Of a DNA stretch of 64,000 bases, positions 1 to 8,490 are shown piece by piece. The DNA lies in the NCBI RefSeq assembly GCF_039545135.1, contig NZ_BAABRU010000004.1, positions 130,427 through 194,426 of the forward strand. The letters run 5' to 3'. The notes under the pieces are model-generated. The model was not told the DNA's origin. It worked only from the letters and a program-made list of their open reading frames with translations, and ran no database searches. Position 1 is the first letter of the stretch. The number at the start of each line of letters is the position of its first letter. A program made the position numbers and the translations under genes. The stretch is from Herpetosiphon gulosus (GTDB taxonomy: Bacteria; Chloroflexota; Chloroflexia; Chloroflexales; Herpetosiphonaceae).

Positions 1-761
1 TTAAAAAATTCTTTTGATACATACGTTTTAGTCTTATTCGTGTATGTGCCATAGTGTGTATAGATTTGTCCGTAGTGAATGCAACCAACACCCGTTTCCG
101 TAAAATCTTTTTTCTGTAATCCGCCGCCGCGAATAAATTCGCCAATCTCTCCCAATGTGCTCCTCTGCACTTCGCCATCTTCAAAACTCAACAATTGCTC
201 ACGATAGTACGTATATTGTTTTTTACGGGCGGTCAGCTCGGCGGTCAGCTCGGCGGTCAGCTCGGCAAAGCCGTCCAAAATCGTAACGATTTTGGACTGG
301 ATTTGCCGCGATTTTTTTGGATTTTCAGGACATGGGATGGGAATTTCCTTATTTGCATAATTACTAATCCATTGACGTTTGTGATCACCGTCAACTAATT
401 CACTTGGCAATGTATTCAGCCAATAATAAATATATTTAGATAAGGTTCTAGACTCATCTGCTGATGAAATCATTTTCATCGCCGATGATTTGGCTTTGAA
501 ATCGAAATCAACCCATTTATGGGCTGTTGTAAAATCATCAAAAATTATAACAGGGGTAGCTGATGCGTTATAAATTCCGTCTGTTTCATCTGTATAACCA
601 AGGATGAATGTTTTACCAGCAGTCAATACCGGAATTTTAAAATCATCGTTATAGTTGGTTGATTGAACAAGGTATTTAGTTGGTTGCTCATATTTTGTTA
701 CCTCCCCCAACGGCAACCACTCCACCGCAACCCCATCCAGCAACTTTTCTAAATAGCTCAT
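1..761 (-). CDS. hsdS: Type I restriction-modification specificity subunit HsdS, N-terminal part (gene continues beyond window start)
   Basis: I translated the minus strand from an ATG at 761..759 that overlaps the hsdM stop as ATGA. The product begins [21 protein letters not shown]..., a typical HsdS target-recognition-domain N-terminus. It is followed by a central [12 protein letters not shown] spacer motif. No stop codon occurs before position 1. The ORF track does not list it because it is truncated. Confidence 0.8.
228..266. repeat. 12-bp tandem repeat (ggcggtcagctc)x3 inside hsdS; encodes TAEL x3 on the coding strand
   Basis: Direct reading of ggcggtcagctcggcggtcagctcggcggtcagctcggc. 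The translated region is [13 protein letters not shown]. Confidence 0.9.
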
Positions 762-2317
762 GCCTCAAGCTCCTCAGATTCAAGCTCAGCCACAATCGCA
801 TCAATCTCCTTGCGCAATTGGTCAATTCTGGCAACCGTGATTTTCAAATTGGCATTGAGCTGGGCAATATCCACTACTTCGCGATTATCTTTGGCTTCGA
901 CATAGCTGCTAACCGACAGATTGTAGTCGTTGGCGGCGATGGCTTCATAGGCTACCGATTGCGCGAAGTGCGCGAGATTGGCCTTGCTCTCGAACACCGC
1001 CATAATCTGGTCGATATGGGCTTCGGTGAGCGTGTTGGTATTAGTTTCTTTTTTAAATAAACCGCTGGCATCGATAAACTGGGTGGTGGTGTCGGTTTTA
1101 TGTTTCGACAACACTAGAATCGTCACCGCAATGCTCGTGCCATAAAACAGGTTGGGTGCGAGCGCAATCACCGTTTCCACAAAGTTATTATCAATCAAAT
1201 ATTGACGGATTTTCTGCTCAGCGCCGCCACGGTAAAAAATCCCCGGGAAGCAAACAATCGCGGCGCGGCCTTTACTGGAAAGATAACTGAGCGCATGCAA
1301 CACAAAAGCAAAATCGGCTTTGGACTTGGGAGCTAAGACCCCGGCTGGCGCAAAACGGTCGTCGTTGATCAGCGTCGGATCATCGGAGCCGATCCACTTG
1401 ACTGAGTAGGGCGGGTTGGAAACGATCGCATCAAAGGGTTTATCACCAAGAAATTGTGGGTTGGTCAGGGTATTGCCCAACTGAATATTGAACTTATCGT
1501 AGTTGATGTTATGCAAAAACATGTTCATCCGCGCCAAGTTGTAGGTGGTGTGGTTAATCTCCTGGCCCCAAAAACCATCTTCAATAATATGCTCGTCGAA
1601 GTGCTTTTTGGCTTGCAGCAGCAGCGAGCCGGAACCTGCGGCGGGATCATAAATTTTATTAACGCTGGTTTGCTTGTGCATGGCCAGCTTGGCAATCAGC
1701 TTTGATACATGCTGCGGGGTGAAAAACTCACCGCCGGATTTACCAGCATTAGCGGCATAGTTGGAGATCAGATACTCATAGGCATCGCCAAACAAGTCGA
1801 TCTGACTATCTTCAAAATCGCCAAAGTCCAGCCCAGCGACCCCTTTGATCACGGCGGCCAAGCGCTGGTTTTTCTCCTTGACAGTATTGCCAAGGCGATT
1901 GCTGGTGGTATCGAAATCGGCAAACAGGCCTTTGATATCGGTCTCGGAAGCGTAGCCGATGGCCGAATTTTCAATCGCGCCAAAGATCGTCGCAAGATCG
2001 GTATTTAACTGTTGGTTGGTATTGGCAGTTTTGGCGATAGTTTCAAACAACTGGCTAGGGTAGATAAAATAGCCCTTGGTTTTGATTGCATCATCTTTGA
2101 TATCGGGAGTAATGACCGCATCAGCAAGCGCGGCGTAATTGATACTCTCATCGCCACCAGCAATATAGCTAGCAAAGTTTTCGCTGATAAAGCGATAAAA
2201 CAGCGTGCCCAGCACATATTGCTTAAAATCCCAGCCATCGACAGAGCCACGGACATCATTGGCAATCTGCCAGATTTGGCGATAGAGAGCGGCACGTTGT
2301 TGTTGGATGCTTGTCAT
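758..2317 (-). CDS. hsdM: Type I restriction-modification DNA methyltransferase subunit HsdM (N6-adenine methyltransferase)
   Basis: 519-aa product with NPPY catalytic motif ([10 protein letters not shown]) and an SAM-binding DPAAGSGS motif. The N-terminal HsdM_N-like region ([13 protein letters not shown]) is present. The gene is translationally coupled to the downstream hsdS. Confidence 0.9.
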
Positions 2318-2614: not shown

Positions 2615-3334
2615 TTAATTTGCGTTCTTGGGCTGAGCCAAACGCCCCAGTAACAAGCCAAATTCAAACAAAAGATACATTGGAACCGCCAAAAAGGCCA
2701 AGTTGGCAGGGTCGCCCGTTGGGGTCAAAATTGCCGCAGCAATCACCGTGATCAGCACAACATAGCGGCGATAACCACCAAGTTTGCGTGGATTCAAAAT
2801 GCCAAGCTTGGTGAGGGTAAACATGATCATCGGCAGTTCAAACACAATCCCATTGATTAGCAGTAGGCGGGTCAGAATTGAGAGAAAATCATCGAGGCGC
2901 GGCTTGTTTTCGATCAAATTACCAGTATTTTCGATGCCAAAGTTGATCAAAAATTTAATTGCGGCTGGGGCAGTTACAAACCAACCAAAGGCCAAGCCAC
3001 CCAAAAAGCACAAAATCACCATGGGCAAACCGATAAAAATCCATTTGCGTTCGGTGCGGGTCAGGCCAGGCGCTAAAAAAGCCAAAAGTTGATAAATAAT
3101 TACCGGCATGGCTGCTGCAATGCCCAGCGTCAGCGCTGTACTGAGGTAGGTGGTAAAGGTTTCGGCAACTTGGGTTGTTTGCACGCCCTGCTCGCCAGCA
3201 AAGCTCAAAATCACATATTTAATAAAGCTAGTGCTATTGACAATATAAAAACCACCAAACATGCCAATTAATACCGCAATCGAGACCTTGGTGAGTCGTG
3301 AACGCAACTCACGCAAGTGATCGAGCAAAGTCAT
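2615..3334 (-). CDS. tatC: Twin-arginine translocase subunit TatC
   Basis: Multi-TM protein with a TatC-type N-terminus, MTLLDHLRELRSRL, at the internal Met I take as the start (3334). The ORF is open upstream to 3394. Confidence 0.85.
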   Translation of the reverse strand: MTLLDHLRELRSRLTKVSIAVLIGMFGGFYIVNSTSFIKYVILSFAGEQGVQTTQVAETFTTYLSTALTLGIAAAMPVIIYQLLAFLAPGLTRTERKWIFIGLPMVILCFLGGLAFGWFVTAPAAIKFLINFGIENTGNLIENKPRLDDFLSILTRLLLINGIVFELPMIMFTLTKLGILNPRKLGGYRRYVVLITVIAAAILTPTGDPANLAFLAVPMYLLFEFGLLLGRLAQPKNAN

Positions 3335-3359
3335 GGTGCCATCAAGCGCAGTCGTTGAT

Positions 3360-3830
3360 CTAGCCATTGGTTTGCTCCTCGGCGGCAGGCGCACGCAACG
3401 CTTGATCTAACGGCTGATCAAGCAAATCGTCATCGAGCATCACACGAGCTTGGCGGGCAATCTCAGGCCGTGCTGCTGGGGCTTTGGGGGTTGGGTCAAT
3501 CACATTAGCCGCAGCCGTTGTTTTGGGATCTAAACCAAGATCGACGATCATCGCCCGATCATCATCGGAGAGAATCGAGCGCCCAAGCTCTTGAATTTGG
3601 CGGCGCGGGTCGAGTTCGCGAATTTGGCGGGCCATTTTTTCGACCGATTCATAATCGTCGCCCAGCTCGTTACGCGCCTGATTGCGCAGATCGGTAACCA
3701 TTTTGCGGCCTTTGCTGATCCACTGGCCAATTTGAAACAACATTTCAGGCAAGCGCTCAGGTCCGACCACCACCAGGGCAATCACCAAGATGATCACAAA
3801 TTCAAACGGGCCAATCCCAAAAATTGTCAT
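3360..3830 (-). CDS. tatA: Twin-arginine translocase TatA/TatB family protein
   Basis: N-terminal MTIFGIGPFEFVIILVIALVVVGPERLPE is the TatA/B signature TM helix plus hinge. The 156-aa length is TatB-like. Confidence 0.8.
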   Translation of the reverse strand: MTIFGIGPFEFVIILVIALVVVGPERLPEMLFQIGQWISKGRKMVTDLRNQARNELGDDYESVEKMARQIRELDPRRQIQELGRSILSDDDRAMIVDLGLDPKTTAAANVIDPTPKAPAARPEIARQARVMLDDDLLDQPLDQALRAPAAEEQTNG

Positions 3831-3921
3831 AAGCGTCTGACCACTGGCTACAGGCTTGGGGCAACGCTTTAAGCAGAGTTAACCGAAAGCCCAACAAATA
3901 ACTGCAATGGTTTATCGTTGC

Positions 3922-4152
3922 GTCCCCTCACCCTCGACATATCCTTACAAGGGTAGGTTTTAACGTTCCCTCACCCCAACCCCTCGCCCACTGCGGCGGG
4001 CGAGGGGCGTTCTACCCTTCATGATGGAGCGCTTCCCCCTCTCCTCGCAGGGCGGGAGAGGGGGCTAGGGGGTGAGGGCATGTCAATCGATGGTGAATCC
4101 CACCCAATCATTGCTAACAACCCACCCTTGTAAGGCGAGGGGGTGAGGGATG
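3922..4152. repeat. Family A palindromic repeat copy with extra outer inverted repeat
   Basis: Same core as 2360..2612. It is flanked by tcccctcaccctcg...ccttacaaggg on one side and cccttgtaaggcgagggggtgaggga on the other. Confidence 0.85.
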
Positions 4153-4231
4153 CCAACCATTACAAATAACAAATGGACAATGCCATGCAAGGCCGAACAC
4201 CTTGCAGCATTGTCCACTGTTCGCATACAAA

Positions 4232-4471
4232 TTACTCTTGGATGTTTGCTTTGATAAATGCTTCAGCGTCGCCGACGGTGCGCAATTTTTCAGCTTCTTC
4301 GTCGGTAATTTCTACGCCGAATTCTTCTTCGAGCGACATGACCAACTCGACCAAATCGAGTGAGTCGGCGTTAAGATCGTCCAAGAAGGTGGCGCTTGGC
4401 ACAATTTTGTCTTCTTCTACGCCCAATTGTTCAGCAACCAATTTCTTCAAGCGTTCGTTTAAGTCTGACAT
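4232..4471 (-). CDS. acpP: Acyl carrier protein
   Basis: 79 aa, with the phosphopantetheine attachment motif [16 protein letters not shown]. Confidence 0.92.
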
Positions 4472-4528
4472 TGTTAGATTCTCCGTATAGATAAGGATAA
4501 GTCCGAGGCAATCAAAGGGATTACCGAG

Positions 4529-4993
4529 TTATTCCTCGGATTCAGGTTTATTGACCACGGTACTGAGCACGCCATTGACAAAACGGCCAGAATTATCGCT
4601 GCCGAAATGTTTTGCAAGCTCGACCGCTTCATTAATCACGGCTTTAACCGGAGCTTTATCCGCCGCCGCATCGTAGAGAATTTCAAACAAAGCGATGCGC
4701 AGCACCGCAATATCCACCCCAGGCATTTGGTGGACAGGCCAAGATGGGGCAATTTTAGCAATTAAATCATCAATCTCTTGACGATTACCCCATGCACCAT
4801 TAACAATTCGGGCAAAAAAATCACGACCTTCTGCGCTGAACATTTCATCATCACTGATGCGTGCAACAACCGAATCAAGGTCGTGGGTGGTTTGATCAAG
4901 TTCAAAGAGTGCCTGAAGTGCCGCAGCACGCACTCGGTGGCGAAGGCTACCCACGGTTCTGCTCGACATCCTGAATATAGACATTAACCGCAC
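4529..4993 (-). CDS. nusB: Transcription antitermination factor NusB
   Basis: 154 aa. The ALQALFELD... pattern is typical of NusB. Confidence 0.8.
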
Positions 4994-5309
4994 TGACCGG
5001 CATGCCGACCATTTCGTTTAATGCTTCGGTTACCGCCGATTGAACACGAGCGCCGAGATCAAGCAAGTTGACATCGGGTTGGGCGATCAGGTAGCAATCG
5101 GCACTGACGCTATCATCGACAACACGGATTGCCACACCATCAGCATTAGCAGTTCCGCTCCCCAACATGCTACCGACACGTTGTTGGCCAGGCACACTGC
5201 CCAACCGCGCAACGCCAGCAACATCCTGCGCCGTCAACGAGACAATCGCTGAAAGCACATCGGGGGCAATTGTCACAGTTCCAAATGGTTGATTCACGGT
5301 TTTCTCCAA
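4947..5309 (-). CDS. Asp23/Gls24 family envelope stress protein
   Basis: 120 aa. [17 protein letters not shown] and the following glycine-rich segment are typical of the Asp23 family. Confidence 0.75.
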
Positions 5310-5316
5310 GACTGCC

Positions 5317-6684
5317 CTATGCTGTCGCTTCTTTGGCAGCCTGTTGATTTAAAATATCAGCCAAGGTGTGCGTTGCAACATCGCCGCTCACAAAAGCTGG
5401 CTCGTTCATCATGCGCAGTTGAAATGGCAAGGTGGTCGTAATGCCATTGATCACACATTCGCTTAATGCTCGCCGCATGCGTTCAATTGCCTCAAGCCGC
5501 GTTTCCCCCCAGACGATCACTTTGGCTAACATCGAATCGTAGTTGGTAGGAGTGCGATAACCTGAATAGAGATGCGAATCGACCCGTACCCCTGGGCCAC
5601 CTGGCGGCAAGTAGAGATCGACAGTCCCGCCAGCAGGCATAAAATCACGGTCGGCATCTTCGGCATTAATCCGACATTCAATCGCATGCCCGCGTATTTT
5701 AATGTCATCCTGAGTGAGCGTCAAGCGTTCGCCGGAAGCAATCCGAATTTGCCACTTAACCAGATCAAGCCCAGTCAGCCATTCGGTCACAGGGTGCTCA
5801 ACCTGCAAACGGGTGTTCATTTCCATAAAATAGAAATTTCCCTGATGATCGAGCAAAAATTCCATCGTACCAGCGTTGTAGTAGCCAATTTCACGCACGC
5901 CATGCAAGGCCGCTTCGCCCATTTTCTGGCGTAATTCTGGGGTCAAGGCAGGCGATGGGCCTTCTTCAACCACTTTTTGATGGCGACGTTGCAACGAGCA
6001 ATCACGCTCGCCCAGGTGAATTGCATGGCCATGTTGATCAGCCAAAATCTGAATTTCAACATGGCGCACCACCGGCAAGTATTTTTCCATATACAGATCG
6101 CCACGGCCAAAGGCAGCTTCGGCCTCAGCGCGGGCGGTATTAAAGGCGCGGGCCAATTCATCGGGCTGATTGACCACACGCATGCCCCGCCCGCCACCAC
6201 CAGCCACAGCTTTGAGCAAAACCGGGTAGCCAATACCATCAGCCAAGCTTTGGGCTTCTTCAACGCTGGTCAAGGGGTTTTCGGTGCCAGGTACAAGCGG
6301 CAGGCCAGCCAACTTCATGGCTTGCTTTGCCAAGGCTTTATCGCCCATACGCTGAATCGAATCGGCTGAAGGGCCAATAAAGGTCAGGCCACATTCACGG
6401 CAACTCTCAGCAAAATAAGGGTTTTCCGACAAAAAGCCATAACCTGGGTGAATCCCATCGCAATCGCTAATCAACGCGGCGCTAATCAAGGCTGGCGCAT
6501 TCAAATAGGATTTGGCTGGTGGTGGCGGGCCAATACAAATCGCTTCATCGGCCATGCGCACCGCCAGCGAATCGCGATCGGCCTCGGAATAGGCGGCAAC
6601 CGCTTTGATGCCTAGCTCGTGGCAAGCGCGAATGATCCGCACCGCAATTTCACCACGATTGGCAATTAAAATTTTGCGTAACAT
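5317..6684 (-). CDS. accC: Acetyl-CoA carboxylase biotin carboxylase subunit
   Basis: 455 aa. MLRKILIANRGEIAVRIIRACHELGI plus ATP-grasp motifs. No accB is adjacent. Confidence 0.92.
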   Translation of the reverse strand: MLRKILIANRGEIAVRIIRACHELGIKAVAAYSEADRDSLAVRMADEAICIGPPPPAKSYLNAPALISAALISDCDGIHPGYGFLSENPYFAESCRECGLTFIGPSADSIQRMGDKALAKQAMKLAGLPLVPGTENPLTSVEEAQSLADGIGYPVLLKAVAGGGGRGMRVVNQPDELARAFNTARAEAEAAFGRGDLYMEKYLPVVRHVEIQILADQHGHAIHLGERDCSLQRRHQKVVEEGPSPALTPELRQKMGEAALHGVREIGYYNAGTMEFLLDHQGNFYFMEMNTRLQVEHPVTEWLTGLDLVKWQIRIASGERLTLTQDDIKIRGHAIECRINAEDADRDFMPAGGTVDLYLPPGGPGVRVDSHLYSGYRTPTNYDSMLAKVIVWGETRLEAIERMRRALSECVINGITTTLPFQLRMMNEPAFVSGDVATHTLADILNQQAAKEATA

Positions 6685-6770
6685 GTTGGTTCCTCAGCTA
6701 AAGCGTTCGAGCAAGCGTTCCAACGCTGCTGCCTCATTGTAATGGTTTATATGGTCGCAATGGTCGCTAT

Positions 6771-6960
6771 GCCCTCACCCCAACCCCTCTCGCACTACGG
6801 CGAGCGAGGGGCTTTATCAGGGTCGGTTTTGCGTTCCCTCACCCCAACCCCGCTCCCACGGCGGCGGGCGAGGGGCATTCCACCGCTCCACCGATTCATT
6901 GGTGAGCTAGTTCCCCTCGCTCGCTGGGCGGGAGAGGGGGCTAGGGGGTGAGGGAACCTC
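6771..6960. repeat. Family A palindromic repeat (two units)
   Basis: Contains ccctcaccccaacccctctcgcactacggcgagcgaggggc ... gggagagggggctagggggtgaggg. Confidence 0.85.
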
Positions 6961-6974
6961 ATAAACCATTACAT

Positions 6975-7730
6975 TTAATACATGGTCATGCCGCCATCGA
7001 CCGCCAAGGTTTGGCCAGTGATGTAGCCCGCAGCATCGGAAGCCAAGAAGACCACCGCGTTGGCAATTTCGGCAGGTTGACCCATACGTGCCAAAGGAAT
7101 TCGATCCAAGGCTTTGTTGATTAATTCTTCGGACATGGCATTGCGGGTCATATCGGTTTCAATAAAGCCTGGGCAAATCGCGTTGGCGGTAATCCCCCGC
7201 GAGGCCATTTCTTGGGCCACCGACTTGCTAAAGCCGATCAGGCCAGCTTTGGCAGCGGCGTAGTTGGCTTGGCCGGCATTGCCTGTTAGACCGATAACTG
7301 AGCTAATCGTGATCACGCGACCCCATTTATTTTTCATCATTGGGCGCAGCACAGCCTTGGTCAGCAACATCACCCCACGCAGGTTGGTTTGCAACACATC
7401 ATCAACTTCGCTCTCTTTCATGCGCAACAACAAGTTATCACGGGTAATGCCAGCATTGTTGACCAGAATATCGACGCGGCCAAAGGCTTCGGTCGTGGCT
7501 TTGAGCAAGGCTTCGTGGCTGGCAGCATCAGCTACATCGGCCTGTACCGCCAGAGCCTTGCCACCCTTGGCAGTAATCGTCTCGACCACTTCAGCAGCGG
7601 CGGCTTCGCTACCACGATAATTGACCACCACCGCAGCGCCGCTGGCGGCCAACGCCTCAGCGATTGCCCGACCGATCCCGCGTGAAGCTCCCGTCACAAT
7701 TGCGACCCGACCCGTTAAATCTAGTTGCAT
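6975..7730 (-). CDS. fabG: 3-oxoacyl-ACP reductase FabG (SDR)
   Basis: The ORF is open to 7853, but an SDR-type start, MQLDLTGRVAIVTGASRGIGRAIA, lies at 7730. It has the TGxxxGIG Rossmann motif and a YAAAKAG catalytic region. Confidence 0.8.
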   Translation of the reverse strand: MQLDLTGRVAIVTGASRGIGRAIAEALAASGAAVVVNYRGSEAAAAEVVETITAKGGKALAVQADVADAASHEALLKATTEAFGRVDILVNNAGITRDNLLLRMKESEVDDVLQTNLRGVMLLTKAVLRPMMKNKWGRVITISSVIGLTGNAGQANYAAAKAGLIGFSKSVAQEMASRGITANAICPGFIETDMTRNAMSEELINKALDRIPLARMGQPAEIANAVVFLASDAAGYITGQTLAVDGGMTMY

Positions 7731-7746
7731 GCTTGCTCCTTCAACA

Positions 7747-8490
7747 CTAAACCATGCGCCAACCGCCATCGACTGGCAGCACTTGGCCCGTAATATAGCC
7801 CGCCTCAGGATTGGCCAGCATAAAAATTGCTGGGGTAATTTCGGCAGGTGCACCTAAGCGTTTCAACGGCACAATATTGGTGGCCCATGGGATATAACTT
7901 GGATCAAAACTCGACATATGGGGCCGTGAGATCAGGCCTGGAGCAACGCTATTCACCGTAATACCCCATGGTGCAACCTCACGCGCCAACGATTTAGAAA
8001 AGCCGATAATCCCACCCAGAGCGGCGGCATAATTGGCTTGGGTTAGGCCGCCAGCTAAGGGCTGATAGCCAGTAATCGTGATAATTCGCCCGTAACGGGC
8101 TTTTTGCATTGGCCGCAAAACGGCGCGGGTAATCCGCGTCACGCCACGCAGCATCACATCCATCACTTCGTTCCATTGCTCAAGGGTCATGTCGGCCACC
8201 GGAGCATTGTTAACCGCAGAATGGGCAGTGATCAGCATATCGAGCCGTTCCCAGCGTCGCACAGCCACTTCAACCAAGCTATTCATGGCTTCAGCATCGC
8301 GCACATCGGCCTTGATCGCGATTAAACGCTGCTCATCAGCAATCGTATCGCACATCTCTTCAGCCAAATCATCGCGCTGGCGATAGCAAAAAACCACCCG
8401 TGCACCGCGTTGAATCAGCCCTGAAACCACTTCGCGCCCAACCGCGCCAGTGCCACCTGTGACAATCGCCACTTGATCGTTAATACTCAT
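7747..8490 (-). CDS. SDR family oxidoreductase (FabG paralog)
   Basis: MSINDQVAIVTGGTGAVG Rossmann motif and YAAALGG catalytic region. 247 aa. Confidence 0.75.
   Translation of the reverse strand: MSINDQVAIVTGGTGAVGREVVSGLIQRGARVVFCYRQRDDLAEEMCDTIADEQRLIAIKADVRDAEAMNSLVEVAVRRWERLDMLITAHSAVNNAPVADMTLEQWNEVMDVMLRGVTRITRAVLRPMQKARYGRIITITGYQPLAGGLTQANYAAALGGIIGFSKSLAREVAPWGITVNSVAPGLISRPHMSSFDPSYIPWATNIVPLKRLGAPAEITPAIFMLANPEAGYITGQVLPVDGGWRMV

Follow-up and report, generated by a model that had tools for sequence, protein, structure and literature searches.

The hsd locus in Herpetosiphon

The window analysed here, a stretch of 64,000 nucleotides from Herpetosiphon gulosus (contig NZ_BAABRU010000004.1), carries at its left edge part of a Type I restriction-modification (R-M) locus. 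The specificity gene, hsdS, lies on the minus strand and is open from position 761 down to position 3, a translated N-terminal part of 253 codons, before leaving the window at the left edge. Directly upstream of it is hsdM (758..2317, minus strand), encoding a Type I m6A methyltransferase subunit of 519 amino acids (Pfam N6_Mtase and HsdM_N; NCBIfam TIGR00497) that matches the HsdM of EcoR124 over its full length (chain 7bst_D, E = 3.1e-286). The two genes are translationally coupled, the start codon of hsdS (ATG, 761-759) overlapping the stop codon of hsdM in the tetranucleotide ATGA.

The HsdS fragment aligned with the EcoR124 cryo-EM chain 7bst_A (PDB 7BST) without a gap over residues 1-218 (phmmer, E = 1.2e-116), and its best PADLOC match was the Type I specificity-subunit model Specificity_I PDLC03077 (E = 8e-151). 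Target-recognition domain 1 comprises residues 1-140 (342..761, minus strand; phmmer against PDB, Pfam Methylase_S and open reading frame coordinates). It is followed by the central conserved region (approximately residues 141-198; 168..341, minus strand), delimited from the columns conserved in an EcoR124I-like HsdS and eight other homologues, and by the start of target-recognition domain 2 (residues 199-253; 1..167, minus strand), placed from the translation and a full-length orthologue of 397 amino acids that supplies the remainder of the Type IC HsdS architecture. Within the central conserved region the motif ILDGF comes first and is followed by a tandem repeat. Domain 1 shares approximately 80% identity with its N-terminal counterpart in EcoR124I, whose half-site is GAA, so that the first half-site is probably GAA here as well. 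Domain 2, judged from the alignment of the full-length orthologue, is unrelated to that of EcoR124I, which means that the second half-site differs. The Type IC family was originally defined by complementation or cross-reactivity between the subunits of its enzymes. Type IC HsdS proteins characteristically have a tetra-amino-acid repeat in their central region (PMC10030836), and one of the kind described as TAEL, LEAT, SEAL or TSEL was found at residues 166-178. The original prediction, which likened this HsdS to EcoR124I/II, is hence borne out: the match to 7bst_A and the position of the repeat place the gene in the EcoR124 (Type IC) family.

The orthologue comes from Herpetosiphon llansteffanensis CA052B (locus L001), whose genome is the closest among the species representatives, with 96% protein identity. 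In this locus hsdS is complete (6001-7194; 397 amino acids), and its product can be aligned along its whole length with an EcoR124I-type HsdS encoded on an E. coli plasmid, both conserved regions being common to the two proteins and domain 2 being the exception. The gene order is hsdM-hsdS-prrC-hsdR, with an HsdR that contains an EcoR124_C domain (PF12008). Upstream of hsdM the order of genes is the same in L001 and in the window, and the two loci align over approximately 7 kb. An EcoR124-type HsdM thus accompanies hsdS in both genomes, while the HsdR that completes the arrangement was seen in L001 only, downstream of hsdS. A search of the 64-kb window for hsdR and for further copies of hsdS, which would point to a shufflon-type arrangement, gave none. 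Past the left window edge the source locus probably continues into genes like those of L001 (prrC and hsdR). As the window includes only the first 253 hsdS codons and lacks hsdR, intactness of the whole R-M system in H. gulosus would follow by extension from the L001 orthologue.

Between hsdS and hsdR, L001 encodes a PrrC (anticodon nuclease) homologue of 374 amino acids (7197-8321; PADLOC PrrC, E = 1.8e-146; Pfam AAA_13). In the prr cassette of E. coli, prrC likewise lies between hsdS and hsdR. The region directly upstream of the R-M genes in the window (2615-6684) encodes proteins with Pfam TatC, TatA/B/E, NusB and biotin carboxylase (AccC-type) matches. As this region aligns with H. llansteffanensis (approximately 86-91% identity), the Type IC system occupies a conserved chromosomal site and not an obvious mobile element.

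A 12-bp tandem repeat within the HsdS central region

The repeat occupies positions 228..266 (minus strand). Tandem Repeats Finder reported a period of 12, 3.2 copies, 100% matches and no indels, with the unit GGCGGTCAGCTC, and direct reading of the letters agreed. The perfect period-12 tract measures 39 bp (3.25 copies): on one side position 227 (g) fails to match position 239 (c), and on the other the periodicity ends at 267. The coordinates and the sequence of a threefold 12-bp repeat given in the original prediction were therefore exact. Allowing up to one mismatch, GGCGGTCAGCTC occurs three times in the 64-kb window, each time inside the array, compared with 0.21 occurrences expected from shuffled sequence; three contiguous copies in register are accordingly not due to chance.

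On the coding strand the unit reads GCCGAGCTGACC (A-E-L-T), and the 39 bp encode HsdS residues 166-178, the part of the first inter-domain helix (D1) that varies in length. Translation of the minus strand and alignments with homologues, including the ungapped one with 7bst_A, confirmed the peptide originally proposed and its location between the target-recognition domains.

Repeat number and the predicted target

How many repeats this array represents depends on the convention used. In the window HsdS a linker of 13 residues separates ILDxF from RKKQY, and the linker of the two-TAEL EcoR124I form (7bst_A and the plasmid gene L081) has the same length and aligns with it without a gap. This E. 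coli plasmid gene carries the DNA described for EcoR124I, and the primers of PMC10644984 match the E. coli EcoR124I-type DNA read here. The exact peptide TAEL occurs twice in the window linker. The two core units are flanked by AEL and TA in the window HsdS, compared with TAL and NM in EcoR124I, and it is because these flanking residues also fit the repeat that the DNA contains a third copy. Hence the perfect period-12 tract is 39 bp (3.25 copies) in the window as against 28 bp (2.33 copies) in EcoR124I, within a helix of equal length. The description of the array as (TAEL)3 in the original prediction therefore holds for the DNA, where the third copy exists, and not for the protein as counted by the EcoR124 convention, by which the ungapped 13-residue alignment gives two units. 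It is this alignment that places the window HsdS in the two-repeat class with an N6-type gap and not in the three-repeat N7 class.

The literature also upholds the claim that TAEL copy number governs how long the gap in the bipartite target is in the EcoR124 family (PMC3874165; PMC10030836; PMC10644984). EcoR124I contains two units and recognises GAA N6 RTCG, while EcoR124II contains three and recognises GAA N7 RTCG (PMC3874165). Engineered hybrids, among them those of EcoDXXI, follow the same rule, two 12-bp units giving N6 and three giving N7 (PMC3874165), and removal of one TAEL from EcoR124II yields EcoR124I (PMC10644984). [quoted passage not shown] This spacer mechanism was established long ago (Price et al. 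1987, 1989; Gubler and Bickle; summarised in PMC3874165), and the tract was named as a spacer-length determinant by Atack et al. 2019 (PMC7383803). The mechanism put forward in the original prediction is thus a published, defining property of Type IC HsdS proteins and introduces no new principle. What is new is only the host (Herpetosiphon, Chloroflexota) and the fuller DNA repeat inside a helix of N6 length.

By the same mechanism, the window repeat would form part of D1, and the length of D1 would govern the distance and rotation between the half-sites and with them the length of the non-specific gap. From the length class of the linker, the gap of the window system is predicted to be of the N6 type and not N7, and the predicted target takes the form GAA-N6-second half-site, with approximately 7 nt between the methylated positions. 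For annotation purposes this means that the form of the target (GAA, a 6-nt gap and a second half-site) is predictable for the window system.

The closest known counterparts are EcoR124I and EcoR124II (Type IC, plasmid R124, E. coli), which resemble the Herpetosiphon system in their homologous HsdM, HsdS domain 1 and both conserved regions, in the hsdM-hsdS arrangement, in a 12-bp TAEL repeat at the corresponding place in helix D1 and, for EcoR124I, in the linker of 13 residues. They differ in that the window domain 2 is unrelated to theirs and the locus is chromosomal in a member of the Chloroflexota. In addition, the unit is written in other codons (ACCGCCGAGCTG in the window versus ACCGCTGAGCTT in EcoR124I). 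EcoprrI (the prr locus) and EcoDXXI belong to the same Type IC family, and the PrrC homologue between hsdS and hsdR recalls the former, albeit seen in L001 only. Both enzymes are reported to have three TAEL units and N7 gaps (PMC3874165), unlike the window gene, which has the two-unit length. On this combined evidence the repeat is very probably the TAEL-type spacer of a Type IC (EcoR124-family) HsdS on the Herpetosiphon chromosome, setting the target gap.

Turnover of the repeat across the Type IC family

Linker length was extracted by pattern, which left 25 of 162 loci unparsed. Among the best 120 protein matches, 64 of the 78 that could be parsed have a linker of 13 residues, the others having 9 (n = 9) or 17 residues (n = 5). 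The GTDB genomes gave 13 residues in 35 cases, 17 in 25, 9 in five, 5 in two and 3 in one, and the metagenome contigs gave 13 residues in 40 cases, 17 in 23 and 9 in four. The window linker is thus in the most common length class, and the lengths of 5, 9, 13 and 17 residues step by multiples of four. Proteins with the same pair of domains as the Herpetosiphon HsdS (77-82% identity) have linkers of either 9 or 13 residues, with the alignment gap located exactly in the repeat.

The units themselves bear the marks of repeated gain and loss. When units encode the same amino acids, they are identical in DNA sequence in 197 of 204 pairs within a gene but in only 17% of comparisons between genes, and 13 different codon versions of TAEL were counted in the genome subset. 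The copies of variant units (TSEL, TTEL, TNEL and EAEL) usually change together within a gene. Since synonymous sites are also identical within genes, selection at the protein level alone would not suffice and repeated unit gain and loss is implied.

Two near-identical pairs differ by a single unit. Over 4213 bp the hsd locus of Oligella urethralis DSM 7531 (L067, 5442-9654) shares 98.6% identity with a metagenome contig (L157); the sole gap in their alignment is 12 bp in the array (linkers of 17 and 13 residues respectively), so that they constitute a natural near-isogenic N7/N6-type pair. In E. coli, P0035 and P0085 (99% protein identity) are exactly one TAEL apart. A matching central region was present in 1269 of 5426 complete E. 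coli genomes. In an evenly spaced sample of these records two units (n = 29) and three units (n = 23) predominated, with four and five units found once each, these counts being read from the length of record that each match covers, as identity is uninformative here (joined BLAST pieces give a query with the wrong copy number 100%). Overall, E. coli alleles range from one to eight units.

The longest E. coli alleles deserve separate mention. The chromosome of strain 33-6 (L163, 223-1530; WP_240743490.1) contains an intact-looking hsdS with eight consecutive TAEL units, and plasmid C of strain S30 (L162, 740-810) contains a shortened hsdS copy with five. Both far exceed the two or three units of the characterised Type IC enzymes. 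EcoR124 derivatives with four or more units are reported to show relaxed specificity, which makes the function of the eight-unit allele uncertain.

Within-gene identity of the units, pairs one unit apart and the range seen in E. coli together document the instability of this class of repeat in homologues and support the view that the TAEL tract is mutable across the Type IC family. The survey shows a tract that is polymorphic in nature, from 5 to 17 residues across phyla, and whose units evolve in concert, and as such it provides population-scale support for the classic EcoR124I/II model. Changes of this kind would be added or removed as whole 12-bp units by slippage or unequal crossing-over. 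With a unit of 12 bp, changes in the array stay in frame and alter specificity instead of turning the gene off; in the window system, derivatives of the N5, N7 or N8 type would then arise without inactivation of the gene. A one-unit indel at the window array should accordingly be read as a change of specificity and not as an assembly error.

Two groups of known systems help to place such changes. NgoAV of Neisseria gonorrhoeae (Type IC, LEAT/EATL) also has a tetra-amino-acid repeat in the HsdS central region, and its LEAT copy number differs among isolates and tracks N6 and N7 motifs in SMRT methylomes (PMC6789123). It differs from the window gene in the register and sequence of the repeat, in a downstream frameshift that adds a further layer and in its documented population variation. 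Phase-variable Type I systems driven by simple sequence repeats (SSRs; PMC7383803) share with the window array the principle that simple repeats in hsd genes change behaviour by slippage. In those systems, however, the repeat units are mostly short and act through frameshifts that turn expression on or off, whereas the window array is short, and its 12-bp unit is always in frame and would affect specificity and not expression.

Variation within the Herpetosiphon lineage

The only close relative available for comparison, H. llansteffanensis, has an identical 39-bp array. This array lies in a block that has recently been shared between the two species. Window positions 1-306, covering the repeat along with the first part of domain 2, are 99.3% identical to L001 (2 mismatches in 306 nt), compared with 91.6% for positions 307-761, which cover domain 1 (38 mismatches in 455 nt). 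In this one pair of genomes (L001 5962-6800) the step in identity at approximately position 306 is significant (Fisher p = 4e-7), and the genes neighbouring hsdS are about 85-92% identical. The pattern suggests that the block of central region and domain 2 was recently exchanged and that the exchange broke off, in coding sense, immediately upstream of the repeat. Because the block was shared so recently, the equal copy number says little about long-term stability. The identical array was considered as independent evidence of stability and rejected, given 99.3% identity in the block against a background of about 88-92%.

Copy-number variants of the window allele were sought in H. llansteffanensis and in metagenomes, and none was found. 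An exact metagenome search with one flank plus one unit gave no matches, a protein-guided metagenome scan yielded no relative above 79% identity, and the window HsdM had no exact counterpart on record in the assembly collection.

The suggestion in the original prediction that the repeat is a potential specificity-switching site thus fares differently at the two levels. It is supported in the family at large by homogenised units, one-unit pairs and the range from one to eight units in E. coli; in the lineage itself any switching would be putative, one relative having the same count in a recently shared block and the metagenome searches yielding no variant. Unit change in this particular lineage would most likely be rare and evolutionary and not a fast phase switch. 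With three 12-bp copies the array is short, and its rate of change may be very low.

Alternative explanations for the repeat

The recently shared segment invites the explanation that in this lineage the array serves as an effectively static structural spacer, its perfection at the DNA level stemming from recent acquisition of the block and not from ongoing turnover. The contrast of positions 1-306 with domain 1 and the flanking genes, the presence of the same array in H. llansteffanensis and a linker of the most common length class are all in keeping with such a spacer. Homogenisation of units within genes that differ from one another, together with near-isogenic pairs one unit apart, speaks against it, since turnover across the family marks this sequence class as unstable over evolutionary time and nothing exempts the Herpetosiphon copy. 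A static spacer is therefore possible but doubtful.

The same step in identity also bears on another proposal, which we can entertain only tentatively, namely that the conserved region, repeat included, is mainly a homology patch for the reassortment of target-recognition domains and that spacer length is secondary. The sharpness of the step and its position just upstream of the repeat in the coding sense are as expected of such a patch, and the conserved regions of Type IC systems are documented sites of domain reassortment (PMC3874165). Nevertheless, the breakpoint, seen in one pair of genomes, need not fall in the repeat, and a role in reassortment complements the function in spacer length and does not replace it.

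It is improbable, in our judgement, that selection for the evolvability of spacer length explains why, in at least six phyla, units are nearly perfectly homogenised within each gene yet written in divergent codons from gene to gene, with the Herpetosiphon array actively switching. Were this so, the unusually long 39-bp tract in a helix of N6 length would be expected to generate N5, N6 and N7 subpopulations in this predatory member of the Chloroflexota.

A fast contingency (phase-variable) locus, in which frequent changes of array length would maintain co-existing Herpetosiphon subpopulations with different methylation and restriction specificities, seems quite unlikely. Such a locus would profit from a unit that stays in frame and from 39 bp of perfect periodicity, which offer more substrate for misalignment than the 28 bp of EcoR124I, and there are precedents in the interconversion of EcoR124I and EcoR124II (PMC3874165), in the NgoAV repeat variants among gonococcal isolates and in the E. 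coli alleles of one to eight units. The array has only 3.25 copies, however, and has the family's most common length; the sole close relative has the same count and no variant was found in metagenomes. Finally, chance similarity or an assembly artefact can be put aside as having virtually no probability, as the array is 100% periodic over 39 bp and in frame, its position is conserved in more than 130 homologous genes and it recurs identically in the independent assembly of another species.

Among the homologues of the window HsdS, three proteins of 407 amino acids (P0001-P0003; E. coli and others) were matched by the window domain 1 in both of their halves. They look like HsdS proteins with two GAA-type domains, an arrangement that would imply a symmetric target.
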